A stretch of DNA of 64,000 nt from Candidatus Bathyarchaeota archaeon (GCA_963733055.1 CAVTBR010000001.1:1508809-1572808), one strand, 5' to 3'; counted from the first letter of the stretch, positions 16,021-59,923 are shown. The notes: generated from the letters alone by a model not told the origin. Program-made: numbers and translations.

Positions 16021-19000
16021 CGACATGATAAGCCACCTGAAGAATGGCTTGGCTTGGGCACTGAAGAAGGGCGTGGCAAGCTGCGATATGCTCCGGGTAG
16101 CCGCATGCAGGCTTCGATCCGGAGATACCCGAATAGGACTTCCTGCCGCGGGCGATACCTGCGGCGCTCCGACAAGGAGCGGGAACCTCCCGAACGGAAG
16201 CATCCAAGTAGGGAGAGGAAGAGATACCAATTGGTATTCCCTTAGTAGCAGCGAGCGAAGAGGGAAGAGCTCAAACTGAACCTGCATAGGAAACTATGCG
16301 GGGTTGTGGGGTTATAGGGCCCGACCGCGCCCTAACCAGAGAAGTTGAAGTGGCCTGGAACGGCCCACCGAAGAGGGTGAAAGTCCCGTAGACGCAATCT
16401 GGAAGGGTTTGGGTTGGGATCCCTGAGTACTACGCCCCGGATTGGGCGTAGGAAGTTGGGAGGAAACAACTTCCAAAGCTAAACATGTCCCAAGACCGAT
16501 AGCGCACTAGTACCGCGAGGGAAAGCTGAAAAGTACCCCGGAAGGGGGGCGAAAAGAGCCTGAAATCAGGTGGTCACAGTCAGTGCACGGCCCGAAAGGG
16601 TAGATCCCCTCCGAAGGAAACTGCGGCAACGCGGCTGTACGAGGAGGGGGGACCAGGGTCGTGCGTTCCGTTTTGTACCACGGGCCGGGGAGTTCATTCT
16701 TGTGGTGAGGCTAAGAGTTTGAAGCTCGAAGCCGCAGGGAAACCAACAAGTTCGCAACGTCGCAAGACGCGAGGAACGAGATCTGAAAGGGTCTGAAATC
16801 ACAGGGATGAAACTCGAAACCGAGTGATCTAGCCTTGGGCAGGGCGAAGCCGGGCGAAAGCCCGGTGGAGGTCCGAATGGGTGATGACGTGCAACTCTCT
16901 CCAATGACCTGGGGCTAGGAGTAAAAGGCCAATCTAACTCGGTGATAGCTAGTTCCCGCCGAAATATCTCTCAGGATAGCCTGGCTGGAGGTGGCTAACG
17001 GGGTAGAGTACTGATTGAAAAACAAGGACTCGAAAGGGTCCACTTTTCATTCAAACTCCGAATCCGTTAGCGCCGTAGAAGGCTGGAGACGGATGTAGGG
17101 CGTAAGGTCCTATGTCGCGAGGGGAACAACCCAGACTAGGGTTAAGGTCCCAAAATCCTGGCTAAGTGTAGAAATAGAAAGCGGTCCTCAACCACAGACA
17201 GCTGGAAGGTAGGCTTAGAAGCAGCCATCCTCCAAGCAGTGCGTAACAGCTGACCAGCCGAGGTTGGGGGCGCTGAAAACGAACGGGGCTAAGCCAGGTA
17301 CCGTTACCCTAGAACACGGTGCATAATCGTGTTGGTAGGCGGGCGTTGTGTCTGGGCGGAAGCTGGGTTTTGAGATCCAGTGGACCGGTCACAAGTGTAG
17401 ATCCCGGTGGTAGTAACAGCCATAGAGGGGTGAGAATCCCCTCCGTCGAAGGGGCAAGGGTTCCCCGGCAATGCGTCGTCAGCCGGGGGTAAGTCGGTCC
17501 TAAGGCTACCCTTAGCCGGATAAGCCGAAAGGGAAACCGGTTAAAATTCCGGTACCACGGAGATACGTGCGGCAACGCAAGTTCATGATCTGACGTTCAG
17601 GGATAGGTCGAGTGGGGCCGTCGCCCCATTTAACCCGTTAAGACCGGGGAGTACCGTAATGGTGAGAACCGGTCGAAGCGGGGAATAGCCGCCCGTCTTA
17701 GGGTGGTTCAGCTGATTCCTCGAGCCACTGAAAAGGAGCATGAAATGGATTCTCCGTGCCCGTACCTAGATCCGACACAGGTGCCCCTAGGTGAGAAGCC
17801 TTAGACGTATCGGGTTGAACTTAGGCGAGGGAACTCGGCAAATTAGCCCCGTAACTTCGGAAAAAGGGGTGCCTGAAGTTTTGGCGCAAGCTGGAACATC
17901 AGGTCGCAGTGACTCGGGTGAAGCGACTGTTTAATAAAAACATAGGGAACCGCCAGCGCGAAAGCGTGTGAACGGTTCCTGAGTCCTGGCCAGTGGCGGT
18001 ATCTGAAATTTGGGTTCAACCAAACCAAGGACCGCTAAACGCCGGGAGTAACTCTGACTCTCTTAAGGTGAACATGGTTTGCCTTAACCCAATCCGGCCA
18101 AATGCTGGAACACCTGAGAATGTCACGCTACCCCAACAAAACCTTCAAGGAAAATAAGGAAACTTGGAGGAAGAGTTGGAGTGACAAAGCGTTGACTGCA
18201 GGCAATCAGCAGGAAAGACTGGAATGAAATATTCCAGAATCCTCAGAGACTTTACGCCGGAAATCGCAGATCAGCGATTAAGATAAAGTCCGACCCCTTC
18301 AGCGATGTAGGGAGGCTTGCAATTTGCAGGTCCGCCTCGAATTTTCTTGCGAGGTCAAATCAAAGTAACAGATGTGAGCCAAATGCCTTGTCGGGTAAGT
18401 TCCGACGTGCATGAATGGATTAACGACTTCACCGCTGTCCCCGCCTAGGGCCCGGTGAACCCACAACCTGGACGAACAGTCCAAGGTCTTCCAGCGGGGC
18501 GAGAAGTCCCCGTGGAGTTTTACTGCAACCTGTCGCTGGGATGTGATTGCGGGTACAGAGCGTAGGTGGGAGCCTTCGAAGTCAACTCTTTGGGGTTGAT
18601 GGAGGCGCCAATGTAACACCACCTATCTGCGGTCGCATCTCTAACTGTACCTTGACGTACAGAACAACGGCTGGCGGGCAGTTCGGCTGGGGCGGCACCC
18701 CCTTGAAAAAATATCAAGGGGGCCCAAAGCTTGGCTCATCCCGGACAGAAACCGGGAGTAGAGGGCAAGACCAAAAGCCAGGCTGACTGGATGCTCATCA
18801 GCAAGGCATCCAGACGCGAAAGCGGGGTCTAGCGATCATTCATGTCCCCATTGTTGGGGGCTGGATGTGACAGAAAAATTACCCCGGGAGTAATTGGCTC
18901 GTCTCCTCTGAGAGTCCCCATCGACGAGGAGGATTGGTTCTCCGCCGTCGTCCCTTCCCATCCTGGGCCCGCAGCAGGGTCCAAGGGCGCGGCTGTTCGC

Positions 19001-43322: not shown

Positions 43323-43436
43323 GGGCCGGTAGTTCAGCCTGGTATGCCCATATCCCGTAAGGGGCCAAAGAACGTCCGGTTCGCATCCACGCTAAGAAAA
43401 ACCGGAAGGCCGCGGGTTCAAATCCCGCCCGGTCCA
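43323..43436 (+). tRNA. tRNA-Ala(CGC) with two introns (43346-43369 in the D-loop; 43386-43400 at 37/38)
   Basis: G3-U70 acceptor GGGCCGG/CCGGTCC; BHB TGGT/GCCA with ATG and AAG bulges; anticodon arm TCCGG-TT-CGC-A..A-CCGGA. Confidence 0.9.
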
Positions 43437-43483
43437 CTATCAACTGAATATAGGCTGTCGGAAAATTATTCCGGAGGATGAAC

Positions 43484-43521
43484 TCTTAGGCCATAAGACG
43501 AGTTCTTCTTAGGCCCGCAGA
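43484..43521 (+). repeat. Left subterminal tandem boxes
   Basis: TCTTAGGCCATAAGA (43484-43498) and TCTTAGGCCCGCAGA (43507-43521), 23-bp period. Confidence 0.85.
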
Positions 43522-43550
43522 ATCCGTCATGGTTTATGAATATGTGATAT

Positions 43551-43861
43551 GCGGCCTTAATGTGTCGAAAGGCGGCTCGCGCCGTGCGTTCGTTACGCAT
43601 CGCGGGTACCTGAGACTAAAGGAAGACCCAGTATTCATCCGGGCCCCTAGTGGCTTAGTGGATCGCTCTGCTGTCGTCTCCTGAGCAACGTGCGTCCCGT
43701 TTCCGGGCAGGGTTTCGGGCGCGAAGCTTCAGGAGATGGTACGAATGGTAGAGACAAGCACAAGTGAAAATAGAAAACTAGATGATCACCAGGCCGTTGC
43801 GGTTGGGGCAAGGAATCCGTATCCCGTTCTCAGTTGCTTGCCTCAAAGAGTGGTTACTGGG
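43551..43861 (+). ncRNA. Candidate structured ncRNA inside the transposon left end
   Basis: At least six helices with plus-strand G-U pairs, a GAAA tetraloop and two possible pseudoknots; TTTATG box upstream. Confidence 0.55.
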
Positions 43862-43880
43862 CTAATTCCCTCGATTATGG

Positions 43881-43930
43881 GGTCACATGGAAATCATTTT
43901 ATAGTCATATCACATAGTTACCATGTGACC
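43881..43930. promoter_or_regulatory. Transposase promoter flanked by a 10-bp inverted repeat (putative operator)
   Basis: GGTCACATGG (43881-43890) and CCATGTGACC (43921-43930) surround TTTTATA; followed by a leader hairpin and GGAGG. Confidence 0.6.
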
Positions 43931-43985
43931 ATCAAATGGGCGGGCAGGGTTGCACCCCTACCCACCCTGAAAGGAGGTCGAAACC

Positions 43986-45032
43986 ATGGAAGGAAACGAC
44001 TCCTCAAGGAAAAAATGCGGGAAGATTAGCCTCTCCGACCCCTCCATAGGGCTCCTGTTCACCAGCATCGATCTAGAATGGGCTGAGGTTGTCGTAGCGA
44101 CCAAGTATTCACTTCTCAAACGGCGACCCCGAGTCGAAGCGAAACCACAGATTCTTGCGCACCTCTTCAAGGCACTCCGCCAGATCAAATCGTTTAGGAA
44201 GCTGGAGGAAGAACTCGGTGAAAATGATGGACTTTGGGCCCATATGCTCGGCTTCGAGAAGCCGCCTAAGCACCAAAGTTTTTCAGATTTTCGGAGAAGA
44301 GTAGGTTCAGTACTTTTCATCGAAATCCTCCGAGAACTGCGCACACGTCTCGTTGAGCTGAAACCAGATCTAGCGGAAATTGTGGTCTTAGATTCAACCA
44401 ATATTCCAGCATACGCGAAGCCTGGAAGAGGCCGAAGAAAGTCGTCTGACAAAGACGCCAAGTGGGGAATCCGCATCAATCCGAAGACGGGTAAGAAGGA
44501 ATACTTCTTCGGACACAAGCTTCACATGGCTCTCTCTGCCAAATATGGTGCGCCTCTCGAAGTTCGAGTGACGCCTGGCAAATGTGCTGACAGCCCAGAA
44601 TTTCCCAAACTCCTTCAATCTCTCTCCGAGGCAAACGTGCATTTTGGTGTGGCCGTGGCTGACGCGGGTTACGATGCCCGAACTAACTACTACGCGGCGA
44701 TTAGGCACAAAGCGAAACCAATAATCGCATTCAATCGCCGAGGTAAACCCGCAGGCACAACAGGAAGATCGCTCGACCACGAAATGCCAGTTCTGCGTCA
44801 CTCCAAAGAGTGGAAACAATTCTATGCAATGAGAGGAGCCATTGAGCGACAATTCTCCGAACTCAAAGAACAGCTAGGAATGAGGCTCCTGACGCTACGA
44901 GGCCTAGAGCGCGTCACAATCCACCTCTACCTCTCTCTAATCGTTCTGCTTGCAATCAATCTTGTCGCTCACCTAACAGGGAATCCAGAACTCCTGCGTT
45001 CAATCGAACCGTGGAGGTACAGCGATGTCTGA
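43986..45032 (+). CDS. DDE transposase (IS5/IS1182-like, IS4 superfamily)
   Basis: VLDST, DAKWG...FFGHKLH, ADAGYD, Y..R..IERQFSELK. Confidence 0.93.
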   Translation: MEGNDSSRKKCGKISLSDPSIGLLFTSIDLEWAEVVVATKYSLLKRRPRVEAKPQILAHLFKALRQIKSFRKLEEELGENDGLWAHMLGFEKPPKHQSFSDFRRRVGSVLFIEILRELRTRLVELKPDLAEIVVLDSTNIPAYAKPGRGRRKSSDKDAKWGIRINPKTGKKEYFFGHKLHMALSAKYGAPLEVRVTPGKCADSPEFPKLLQSLSEANVHFGVAVADAGYDARTNYYAAIRHKAKPIIAFNRRGKPAGTTGRSLDHEMPVLRHSKEWKQFYAMRGAIERQFSELKEQLGMRLLTLRGLERVTIHLYLSLIVLLAINLVAHLTGNPELLRSIEPWRYSDV

Positions 45033-45525
45033 TCGAGAATGCCGCTGGACATTAGGCGTCCAGGTGAACAGAAAGATCGGAGAGAAAGTCTACCCGAGCC
45101 TCAGAATTTACGTACCCAGCGCCGACAGCGAGCTACTCCTCAAGCGGCTGCAAGCCGAAGGAGGCGAAGCCGCAAAACTATACTTCAACGCCAAGATCAA
45201 CGGCTCAACAATCACGCTACGACAAGTTAAACTCCAAACACAAACGAAGGCCGCCCGTCCCAGCCTGACAGAGCGAGCGGACCAAATAATCACGATCATC
45301 GCTCAACAAGGAGGAACCACAACCTGGCCCGCCGTGCGAGAAAAACTCGGATTACCCCCTGAAAGCATGCCTGGCCCATTCCTCGTCAAACAACTCAGAG
45401 ACAGAGGACTCCTAACAATTAAGAACCCGAAGACATCAACAATGACCTGGAAGCTCATAAACAGGCAAAAACTGAACGGATGGACAAGTATTCAAACGAC
45501 TAAGCATGAAGTGCAAGAAAGGTAA
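45025..45525 (+). CDS. Transposase-coupled putative DNA-binding protein (AbrB-like N-terminus, winged-helix C-terminus)
   Basis: Overlaps the transposase stop; YPSLRIYVP; IITIIAQQGG..W..VREKLG...LVKQLRDRGLL. Confidence 0.55.
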   Translation: MSDRECRWTLGVQVNRKIGEKVYPSLRIYVPSADSELLLKRLQAEGGEAAKLYFNAKINGSTITLRQVKLQTQTKAARPSLTERADQIITIIAQQGGTTTWPAVREKLGLPPESMPGPFLVKQLRDRGLLTIKNPKTSTMTWKLINRQKLNGWTSIQTTKHEVQER

Positions 45526-58291: not shown

Positions 58292-58801
58292 TCAATTATT
58301 GGAAGCGATTGAGACGGTCTGGTCGAGTTTAGAGTTCAGTTCACTGAGCAGGTCATTCAATCTTGTTATCAGCATTCCGACTTCGTTGATCAACCAGACT
58401 ATCTCCGCGGGTTTTGATTCTGTACGATTCTGAACATGTGGAATTGAGAATTTTCTCTGGCAGTCATTGCATCGGAACCGTCTTGCAATACCCCTCGCAT
58501 TGTACCGGAATCCGCATCTCGCGATATCAATTGAGCCGCAATATCTGCATTTGAGATGCGCTTCGTCAAAGTCTTCTTGCTTGTCCTGTGACGCGTAGCG
58601 ATGGAATTGGGTTGCATACAAATGGGAACATGCAGGTCCGTCGGACTGGCAATCACACCCCCATTTTCCATCCTTGAGTTCGATTAGATGCCAGCCGTTA
58701 CTTCCTTGAGATTTTACGACGTAATGAGTTGGAGCAAGTCTTCTCACCATTCCGTTCTTGAAGATGGCGAATCCCTCCTCTCGGAGGGTATCCTCGTTCA
58801 A
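58292..58801 (-). CDS. SWIM zinc finger plus zinc ribbon protein with C-terminal coiled coil
   Basis: CDC....CSH; CRYCGS...G......RFRCNDC. Confidence 0.75.
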   Translation of the reverse strand: MNEDTLREEGFAIFKNGMVRRLAPTHYVVKSQGSNGWHLIELKDGKWGCDCQSDGPACSHLYATQFHRYASQDKQEDFDEAHLKCRYCGSIDIARCGFRYNARGIARRFRCNDCQRKFSIPHVQNRTESKPAEIVWLINEVGMLITRLNDLLSELNSKLDQTVSIASNN

Positions 58802-59529
58802 CGTATTGCCTCTTTCAGAGTTACCGTAGTCGTCTTACTGGGGCACTGGTCGAGGTACGGACAGTAGTGGCACATGGGTCCAGGTTCAGCTGCGGGCAGA
58901 ACGGAATCTTTCGTTGATTGGTGTAATGCGGTGGCTCTTTGAATCATCCACTCCTTCCGGTACCCGAGTGGGACTTCTTTAGGGATGATCTCTTTGTCAT
59001 CCACGTAAATTAGCACAAGTCGGGTAACTGCGATTCCATATTCGCCGAGTAATGTGGCGTAACATTGAACCTGAGCGGTATGGTTTTCGCGTGGGATGTG
59101 CCCCTTCTCTGCTTGCCAGTTTGCAAATCGCGTCGTCTTTAGATCGTAAAGAGTCGAAGTCTCAATGTCAAGAGCATCAACATATCCAACAATCGTTATT
59201 GTCTCATCACCGAGCGGGAATGTCATTTTGACTCGCAGTTCGCTCCAGCCGAGAGATCTGACCATGTAGTGGAGTAAGGTTCCCCGAAGTTTAGCCCACG
59301 CAGACCCTACGGGCTCGTCCACGGGCGAAGTTCTTTCGAAGTATGCTTTCGCTAAGCAATTTGTGAGGGTTGAAACATGGTAGGTGTTGGGTTCTGGTTG
59401 GAACCTTTGCCATGTCATTCTGCTCCAGAACGAACTTGGTAGAAGCGAGTTACATTCCGAACAATCCTGAACTCTCTGGTTATGGTTGCAGATCAGAGAT
59501 TTCCGAACGGCAGGCATATATTCCGTCAT
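58798..59529 (-). CDS. Solo Cas4-like PD-(D/E)xK nuclease
   Basis: C..., RGT.LH, G.VD...YDLKT, Q...Y, C..C.Y...C Fe-S-type Cys pattern. Confidence 0.8.
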   Translation of the reverse strand: MTEYMPAVRKSLICNHNQRVQDCSECNSLLPSSFWSRMTWQRFQPEPNTYHVSTLTNCLAKAYFERTSPVDEPVGSAWAKLRGTLLHYMVRSLGWSELRVKMTFPLGDETITIVGYVDALDIETSTLYDLKTTRFANWQAEKGHIPRENHTAQVQCYATLLGEYGIAVTRLVLIYVDDKEIIPKEVPLGYRKEWMIQRATALHQSTKDSVLPAAEPGPMCHYCPYLDQCPSKTTTVTLKEAIR

Positions 59530-59819: not shown

Positions 59820-59857
59820 TCTTATGGCCTAAGACAAACTCCTCTTATGGCAACAGC
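59820..59857 (-). repeat. Right subterminal tandem boxes
   Basis: TCTTATGGCCTAAGA (59820-59834, exact reverse complement of the left box) and TCTTATGGCAACAGC (59843-59857), 23-bp period. Confidence 0.85.
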
Positions 59858-59906
59858 CAAAACCTAGCTACCCAAAGGTTGGGAATTTTCCGACAACCTA
59901 ACTGAA

Positions 59907-59923
59907 TAGGCTGTTGAAAAATT
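59907..59923 (+). repeat. Second transposon-end-like sequence
   Basis: TAGGCTGTTGAAAAATT matches the left TIR at 15/17 and overlaps the right TSD by 2 bp. Confidence 0.7.

Follow-up and report, generated by a model that had tools for sequence, protein, structure and literature searches.

Between the left end of a 16.4-kb archaeal transposon and its DDE transposase gene lies a region that, to judge from sequence comparison, is a conserved structured RNA element on the plus strand, with a TATA-like box of its own and tied to the transposon's transposase. The transposon is part of a 64,000-nucleotide (nt) stretch of Candidatus Bathyarchaeota DNA (hereafter the window), in which Rfam recognises archaeal 16S and 23S rRNA genes and an RNase P RNA. 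Its left end, the folded region and the transposase gene follow one another in that order on the same strand. An earlier examination of this DNA (the sequence-only reading) had proposed a discrete, pseudoknotted non-coding RNA of about 310 nt at 43551-43861. Our preferred reading, held at roughly even confidence, is instead that positions 43533-44029 (+) form a cis-acting structured 5′ leader, which gates an upstream reading frame and so translation of the transposase. Such a leader would most likely limit the amount of transposase rather than guide the choice of insertion site.

Relatives and domains of the folded region

A metagenome scan with an alignment of the transposase yielded 45 loci, seven of them close (transposase 57-71% identical to that of the window). 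A homologous segment is present in five of the six distinct close elements, and these five sequences (the window, L036, L037, which equals L038, L040 and L059) form the set compared below; the sixth element, of the G010 type, has an unrelated insert. Among 40 related genomes, a DNA match was found in G010 only, and there only at two flanks, the left end and the transposase promoter; the approximately 340 nt between them could not be aligned with the window. Three of the seven close loci are identical to G010 in this segment. The G010 comparison alone had suggested a non-conserved spacer, a view overturned by the metagenomic homologues: conserved blocks common to the window and to L036, L037, L040 and L059 run across the middle segment. 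The G010-type insert itself is about 320 nt long, occupies the same place as the RNA (7755-8075 in L007) and is identical in L039 and L041. On either strand it folds much more stably than shuffled sequences (plus z −3.5, minus z −5.0), and neither an Rfam match nor an upstream frame crossing the promoter was found in it.

The region begins with a TATA-like box, TTTATGAA (43533-43540, +), a putative outer promoter that we term P1. The sequence-only reading had already picked out this box, as TTTATG, and it is kept as TTTAWGA in all five sequences, at a fixed 30-31 nt from the first G of the first helical domain. A similar box, GTTTAAGG, was seen by eye about 31 nt before the 5′ end of the tRNA-like gene upstream. 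The first domain, D1 (43564-43616, +), is a long hairpin closed by GUC/GAC, whose stability in the window was equalled by 2 of 200 shuffles (z −2.45). It contains the helix CTCGCG..GTGCGT/ACGCAT..CGCGGG listed earlier, and in the minimum-energy fold its GUC pairs with GAC instead of following the earlier TGTC-GAAA-GGCG arrangement. All five elements have a hairpin here (71-84 nt, z −2.7 to −6.0 in the homologues), with 31 predicted pairs in L037, L040 and L059; the D1 sequences of the window and of L036 cannot be aligned with the others. D1 is followed by a conserved single-stranded block, B1 (43617-43627, +), which reads UAAAGGWAGAC and is invariant in all five except at W. Next comes a variable linker, V2 (43628-43663, +), whose length differs by insertions among the homologues.

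The second large domain, D3 (43664-43766, +), consists of two stacked helices, P2a (43664-75/43753-66) and P2b (43676-86/43727-37), and a variable apex (43687-43726) that ranges from about 25 to about 80 nt across the five elements. Pairing across the five sequences reaches 97.5% in P2b and 88.3% in P2a, and in the window none of 200 shuffles folded as well as D3 (z −4.22). The domain encloses a Shine-Dalgarno (SD)-like AGGAG (43731-35) and start codons at 43736 and 43748. A purine-rich unpaired linker (43767-43788, +), which holds the first codons of the upstream frame, folds weakly in every element (−1.7 to −5.4 kcal/mol) and leads to the third domain, D5 (43789-43860, +), with helices P3a (43789-93/43856-60) and P3b (43803-11/43838-46). 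D1, V2 and the apex of D3 are largely unalignable among the five elements. The similarity is also patchy: L036 and L059 are 85% identical from D3 onward and unalignable in D1 and V2, and L037 and L040 share 85% identity in the left end, D1 and B1 and only 68% afterwards. This patchiness suggests recombination between modules.

A covariance model of D3 to D5 (R1; 200 positions, 41 pairs) was built, and the five sequences were realigned to it. Standard pairs occupy 89.4% of its 199 cells, compared with 27-43% when the 3′ partners were slid by one to three columns. Six pairs are changed on both sides, against 0-3 in the slid controls, whose covariation score does not exceed 0.066 (observed, 0.217); neither the observed pairing nor the score was matched in any of 500 shuffles. 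Covariation in homologous elements, which the sequence-only reading had suggested testing, is seen here as the six pairs with compensatory changes. The second P3a pair is CG in two sequences, UA in two and AU in one, and four P3b pairs have changes on both sides. L037 has its P3b rewritten from GGGGCAAG/CTTGCCTC to GTCGTGG/CCACGAC; the proposed helix of that sequence (43805-12/43837-44) keeps six to seven of its eight positions paired in the homologues, with the compensatory changes in L037.

The same comparison bears on the strand. The sequence-only reading had held that G-U pairs favour the plus strand, and the plus-strand sense indeed yields 25 G-U cells versus 5 A-C cells, a count biased in that direction by the prediction of the structure on the plus strand. 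Pairing falls from 89.4% to 79.4% when the structure is read on the other strand. Folding of each sequence as a whole gives z values of −2.0, −1.0, −2.6, −2.9 and −3.0 for the plus strand versus −1.5, 0.1, −1.3, −1.0 and −2.0 for the minus strand, such that the plus value is lower in all five. In the window, 43551-43861 folds at −116.3 kcal/mol on the plus strand (z −1.73, 6/100 shuffles as good) and with z −1.60 on the minus strand (5/100 as good). In the shuffle check that had been suggested, the region as a whole is marginal (6/100); of the single domains, D1 (2/200) and D3 (0/200) stand out, and D5 (38/200) does not.

All the helices that had been listed earlier are present in the sequence, and they differ in how they fare among the homologues. 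A 12-bp helix (43673-84/43729-40) has 9-11 of its 12 positions paired in four homologues. The outer helix GCGGCCT/AGGCCGT is not retained (only four to five of seven paired); the 5′ arm precedes the probable start of the transcript, and the 3′ arm takes part in the covarying P3a. CTCTGCT/GGTAGAG likewise drops to two to five of seven, the conserved alternative partner being 43753-66, in P2a. The proposed pseudoknot CCCAGTA/TACTGGG is not conserved and clashes with P3a, whose second pair covaries as CG, UA or AU across all five sequences. Taken together with the other proposed pseudoknot, CTGAGA/TCTCAG, it has 73.8% of cells paired, compared with 26-45% in slid controls.

No known RNA family was matched by either the window region or its homologues. 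Rfam 15 gave no match in 43441-43985, either at the gathering threshold or at E values up to 10, and for the homologous regions of L036, L037, L040, L059, L044 and L006, at E ≤ 1, only a tRNA-like gene of L044 was matched. A permuted or second signal recognition particle RNA was considered and rejected, the genome's own copy being found on another contig (154.8 bits). Searches with R1 returned only the five elements among 73 sources, with no match in the group whose transposases are about 40% identical to that of the window, nor in the G010 type. Among 151 genomes they returned the window's own copy and one marginal match (G158, E 0.0031), and among 85 viral loci, taken from pattern scans giving 74, 11 and 0, nothing better than E 0.47. 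A scan of genome contigs for further members found only the G010 contig.

The upstream reading frame and a proposed leader

The structure overlaps an open reading frame (43736-44029, +) of 97 codons counted from the ATG at 43736, or 94 from a conserved ATGGT at 43748. It extends over D5, the transposase promoter, the palindrome around its TATA box, the leader hairpin and the SD sequence, and it ends 44 nt into the transposase gene. From the ATGGT (TTG in L040) the frame is 91-95 codons long in the five elements, and in each of them it terminates 32-56 nt past the A of the transposase ATG. It contains no stop codon in any of the five, compared with one to seven in the other five frames. When substitutions were placed at random in the observed numbers, only 5-24% of the trials for each pair left the frame open. 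The SD-like motif, which is AGGAG or, in two elements, AGGGG, stands 8-11 nt before the ATGGT and is paired within P2b in all five; in the window, AGGAG (43731-35) and the ATG at 43736 fall within P2b and the codons after 43748 within P2a. The 3′ end of the host 16S rRNA reads CACCTCCT.

The frame does not evolve like a conserved protein. Substitutions are spread flatly over codon positions in all ten pairs (for example 25/21/21, 19/18/22 and 11/8/8), and L036 and L059 share a +1 shift that is restored about 45 nt later, such that this stretch of D5 is read in another frame. A conserved protein-coding gene was rejected on these two grounds, the lack of a third-position excess and the change of frame over about 45 nt. 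A protein collection holds three further homologues of 96-97 amino acids, one of them named 'hypothetical protein'; they have hardly any similarity to one another in the N-terminal half, and the C-terminal half of each falls on the DNA of the conserved promoter and leader.

These features are in keeping with two known kinds of translational control. In the structural model, P2b pairs the SD sequence and start codon, as in an SD-masking leader, although those of the upstream frame and not of the transposase. As far as the sequences indicate, the frame is also kept open and ends just inside the downstream gene, as expected of an upstream open reading frame acting by translational coupling. The same frame speaks against the discrete 310-nt molecule that had been proposed, because it continues through the transposase promoter into the gene in all five elements and no conserved terminator is present. 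Indeed, four of the five have no run of five or more T residues between D1 and the transposase ATG, and the fifth has a T5 inside the loop of D5. Since there is no conserved oligo-T terminator and the frame runs on into the transposase gene, we find no sign of a separate molecule.

We propose the following model. Transcription would start about 30 nt past the TATA-like box, just inside the left end, and the RNA would fold into the three long hairpin domains D1, D3 and D5. D3 would lock the SD-like AGGAG, the start codon and the first codons of the roughly 94-codon upstream frame into its two stacked helices. If D3 opened, ribosomes could translate the frame through D5, the transposase promoter, the leader hairpin and the ribosome-binding site, and would stop 32-56 nt inside the transposase gene. 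The amount of transposase made from outer or read-through transcripts would in this way be set, either up or down. A possible trigger is the binding of a protein, or competition by the GGWAGAC of B1 for the strand that masks the SD sequence. In all five elements the block could form a duplex with the anti-SD strand, GUCUCC (−8.3 to −8.7 kcal/mol, compared with −15.6 to −17.6 kcal/mol for the SD strand); both B1 and the anti-SD strand are invariant, and such competition could act as a switch. Of the roles suggested by the sequence-only reading, namely cofactor, regulator or ribozyme, that of regulator fits best, and no ribozyme family was matched.

A comparable arrangement occurs in more distant elements. 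Four loci whose transposases are about 40% identical to that of the window share a segment of their own, of about 430 nt, directly 5′ of the transposase gene and co-oriented with it (L044, 270-700; L042, 1899-2327; L047, 2180-2597; L046, 1443-1859). This second module has a TTTAAGAG box, a long hairpin that pairs GCUCCUG with UAGGAGC, and motifs GAGAAAGGAAGACC and GAAGCGAAGAAGG that recall the window type. Among sequences that are very alike, 98 pairs are predicted, seven of them with compensatory changes, and the module has its own SD-masking hairpin. Its upstream frame is free of stops in all four and again ends just inside the transposase gene. The transposase is in the +1 frame relative to the upstream frame in the window type and in the −1 frame in the L044 type, which makes a common frameshift fusion unlikely. 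In L042 and L047 the module lies 1.8-2 kb from the left end, and because it is so remote from the end there, the RNA appears to follow the transposase gene and not the transposon end.

Weighing the explanations

Several observations weigh against the leader model. Folding of the whole region is weak in the window (z −1.7 to −2.0), and D5 alone does not rise above shuffled sequences there (z −0.86, 38/200 as good). The R1 structure was derived from, and its alignment fitted to, the same five sequences. The significance of the open frame is moderate, given five related sequences and three gene-called proteins that are biased towards being open. The transposase has a strongly conserved TATA box and palindrome of its own 90 nt before its ATG, and it therefore needs no outer transcript. 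The roughly 300 nt of conserved structure far exceeds what masking of an SD sequence requires. Finally, the G010-type element keeps the ends, promoter, transposase and partner gene but lacks both the RNA and the upstream frame, so that the module must be dispensable or replaceable.

Some of the same features would suit a stand-alone RNA acting in trans, as a cofactor, scaffold or guide of the transposase, of the partner protein encoded after it or of a Cas4-like nuclease near the right end, or as a processed regulator. We think this unlikely, though by no means negligible. It would account for a TATA-like box of the RNA's own, at constant spacing from the first helix, for the separate downstream promoter that serves the transposase, and for the make-up of the RNA, in which the stems of three large hairpin domains and the unpaired blocks are conserved and the hairpin tips vary freely. 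The RNA also lies between the left end and the recombinase gene, as do IS110 bridge RNAs in the available parts of their description (PMC11208160), and the IS200 tnpA 5′ untranslated region (UTR) is, in the portion of the report available, processed into trans-acting RNAs (PMC5435999). Yet no conserved terminator defines a 3′ end, the maintained frame physically ties the RNA to the transposase start, the related module is away from the element end in L042 and L047, and the G010-type element manages without it. A guide role, which had been offered earlier as speculative, gains nothing from the flanks: with exact matches only and flanks of 60 nt, the longest RNA match to the cognate flank is 6-8 nt, compared with 5-10 nt for non-cognate ones (complementarity to donor ends was judged by eye). 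In the parts of the literature covered by our search, no transposase of this DDE superfamily is described as having an RNA cofactor. There is a slim chance that the RNA, or D1-D3 released from the leader, is specifically a trans cofactor for site choice or for assembly of the transposase, partner or Cas4-like nuclease. The varying hairpin tips would then carry specificity and the G010-type insert would be a swapped specificity module. If this were true, RNA dependence would be seen for the first time in a transposase of the IS4/IS5/IS1182 DDE superfamily, and in an archaeal one, and RNA-dependent transposition would extend to the largest transposase superfamily.

A small protein gene of 94-97 amino acids at 43736-44029, overlapping the transposase promoter and with the helices secondary, seems improbable to us. 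All five sequences keep the frame open after an ATG preceded by an SD-like motif, gene calls in public data include three more homologues (96-97 amino acids), and the frameshift is compensated in L036 and L059. Against this, substitutions are even over codon positions, and homologous columns are read in different frames in two of the five sequences. As protein, the N-terminal half can hardly be aligned, although the helices in that stretch of DNA are retained, with compensatory changes. The conserved C-terminal half is promoter, leader and transposase start, conserved as DNA even in the frame-less G010 type. The product has no Pfam match, and D1 to D3, where all three frames contain stops, would be left unexplained. 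That the hairpins act as DNA, either as protein-binding palindromes or as single-stranded hairpins with no RNA involved, is very unlikely. The region does adjoin the subterminal repeats, and the G010-type replacement folds on both strands (z −3.5 and −5.0), as DNA palindromes would. However, the excess of G-U over A-C cells (25 vs 5), the loss of pairing on the other strand (89.4% to 79.4%) and the better plus-strand z in all five sequences point to RNA. Furthermore, the helices span up to 100 nt with variable interiors and covary instead of keeping a binding sequence, and DDE_Tnp_1 enzymes act on double-stranded ends. We put least faith in a non-functional spacer whose structure reflects chance and shared ancestry. 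The whole-region z in the window is only −1.7, only five related sequences are at hand and one close element has replaced the segment; but pairing reaches 89% compared with 27-43% in slid controls, which preserve relatedness, and the domains are stable in mutually unalignable sequences. Further arguments for function come from the conservation of unpaired blocks, the spacing of the promoter and the frame that is kept open.

The transposon and comparable systems

The transposon ends at 43449 and 59902. Its left terminal and subterminal repeat (43449-43525, +; TATAGGCTGTCGGAAAATT ... CTTAGGCCATAAGA) has an inverted copy at the right end. TATAGGCTGTCGGAAAATT, which starts at 43449, recurs inverted at 59884-59902 (three matches, a result reached in 0/100 shuffles), and both left-end motifs, TATAGGCTGTCGGAAAATT and the subterminal CTTAGGCCATAAGA, are also found at 59820-59902. 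The inverted repeats are imperfect and about 70 nt long. An 8-bp direct repeat, ACTGAATA, flanks both ends and represents an 8-bp target duplication. Because the end motifs are inverted at the two sides and ACTGAATA flanks both, the folded region lies inside the transposon. In all seven close loci the left end is 494-624 nt 5′ of the transposase ATG, and a genome search showed the folded region and the transposase both to be single-copy.

The transposase (43986-45032, +) has 348 amino acids and matches Pfam DDE_Tnp_1 (1.2e-25) together with DUF772; its best NCBIfam matches are IS1182, IS5 and IS4, each below its cut-off. Its TATA box (TTTATA, 43898-43903) is bracketed by a palindrome, GGTCACATG..CATGTGACC (43881-43930; inverted repeat I4, no strand assigned), which we regard as a putative second promoter (P2) and operator. 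A GC-rich leader hairpin and then a perfect GGAGGT follow (43940-43985). The palindrome is about 80% conserved in G010, with its middle replaced, and CATGTG/CACGTG palindromic repeats were recognisable by eye at the same position in two 40%-identity relatives, G325 and G180. It is likely to be an operator, perhaps for the product of the partner open reading frame that overlaps the transposase stop (45025-45525, +; 166 amino acids). This partner is conserved after the transposase (64-77% identity in close elements, 22-29% in distant ones). Its AlphaFold model is confident only in residues 81-144, in the C-terminal half, which look winged-helix-like (predicted local distance difference test score about 86). 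Foldseek against the PDB gave weak matches only, all with E above 1e-3, no Pfam or NCBIfam match was found, and nothing indicates RNA binding.

Near the right end Pfam identifies a Cas4-like PD-(D/E)XK nuclease (58798-59529, −). It is 89% identical to a sequence (L024, 4-570) that lies next to a right end on another G010 contig, whereas the two transposases are only 64% identical. From these sequences, elements of this family appear to be mosaics. The combination of a DDE transposase and a nuclease gene near the element end is reminiscent of TnsA/TnsB. The remaining cargo includes an N6/N4 methylase with an MvaI/BcnI endonuclease, ASCH, DruA-like and HerA/NurA genes, an M78 peptidase with a helix-turn-helix, and PARP-like and thymidylate-synthase-like genes; as a whole it looks like a defence island.

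Several further observations concern the insertion site and its surroundings. Directly after the right-hand target duplication, at 59905-59923, there is a degenerate left-end-like sequence, AATAGGCTGTTGAAAAATT, with three mismatches, and the transposon apparently inserted at the tip of a pre-existing solo end. The junction of L036 (AACTGAA|TAGG) has the same flank word. To the left, a tRNA-like gene with two apparent introns and an anticodon loop TTCGCA.. was read by eye at about 43323-43440, and the transposon starts about 10 nt past its 3′ end. ARAGORN called no tRNA or transfer-messenger RNA anywhere in the window, including this gene, for which Rfam gave only weak T-arm matches. L044, a 40%-identity relative, sits 9 nt past an apparently orthologous tRNA gene (about 1-117 in L044). 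Elsewhere in the window, the 23S rRNA gene holds a group I intron at 18060-18312 (Rfam RF00028, 56.2 bits).

Upstream frames and masked start sites are familiar from bacterial elements. In IS1 (insA/insB) and in IS3 and IS911 (orfA/orfB), transposases are controlled by an upstream open reading frame or translational coupling, and in IS10 and IS50 fold-back masking of the start site protects from outside transcription. The window element resembles these in having an upstream frame that extends, in a different reading frame, over the start of the transposase, and in the concealment of initiation signals by structure in long transcripts. In contrast, the upstream frames of IS1 and IS3 encode conserved DNA-binding proteins and are fused by −1 frameshifting, whereas the window's peptide is not conserved. 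An antisense RNA of the IS10 RNA-OUT type, transcribed against the transposase mRNA and overlapping its 5′ end, does not fit, the modelled structure lying on the transposase's own strand by the G-U count (25 vs 5 A-C) and by z in 5/5. Nor does an omega or reRNA of TnpB/IscB: no such domain was found by Pfam in the 24 element open reading frames scanned (mostly of at least 90 amino acids, taken from lists with cut-offs of 50 and 90 amino acids), and those RNAs overlap the 3′ end of the nuclease gene and the transposon end, whereas the window RNA is 5′ of a DDE transposase.

For three better documented systems the comparison is limited to the portions of the reports available. The tnpA 5′ UTR of IS200 combines an SD-masking stem-loop with an antisense RNA, art200, and UTR-derived small RNAs (PMC4513863, PMC5435999). 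The likeness lies in a structured RNA that the transposon carries ahead of its transposase gene, in the same orientation, and in a ribosome-binding site hidden within a hairpin. However, IS200 is bacterial, uses a Y1 (HUH) transposase and has a short UTR in which the masked SD sequence is the transposase's own, whereas the window has an archaeal host, a DDE enzyme, about 300 nt in three domains and a masked SD sequence that belongs to an upstream frame, with no antisense partner seen. No sequence or Rfam relationship between the window RNA and the IS200 UTR was found. In ISPpu9, of the IS110 family, transposase expression is set by the structure of a long 5′ UTR together with element-encoded small RNAs (PMC8450116). 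It differs in being bacterial, with a DEDD enzyme, an unrelated RNA and, in the available part of that report, no upstream frame described. The bridge (or seek) RNA of IS110/IS1111 elements is encoded in a long non-coding left end, 5′ of the recombinase gene (PMC11208160, PMC11187229), a position shared by the RNA of all five window-type elements. The bridge RNA serves a DEDD (RuvC-like) recombinase and matches target and donor through two complementary loops; the window element, in contrast, has a DDE_Tnp_1 enzyme, terminal inverted repeats and an 8-bp target duplication, and no cognate flank complementarity was found. By analogy, and as far as these partial accounts go, the closest systems in mechanism would seem to be the SD-masking 5′ UTR of IS200 and the 5′ UTR control of ISPpu9, with the IS110 bridge RNA close in position only. 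The parts of the literature covered link no structured RNA with any transposase in this DDE superfamily.

Transposons have to hold transposase at low levels, and the solutions found in bacteria include antisense RNAs, masked ribosome-binding sites and upstream frames. To our knowledge, almost nothing comparable has been described for the control of transposases in archaeal elements. Here, a large covarying RNA appears to be joined to an upstream frame that is maintained across a second promoter, in a family that carries what looks like defence cargo. In an archaeal lineage that has not been cultivated, the locus offers a defined system in which translational control can be tested.

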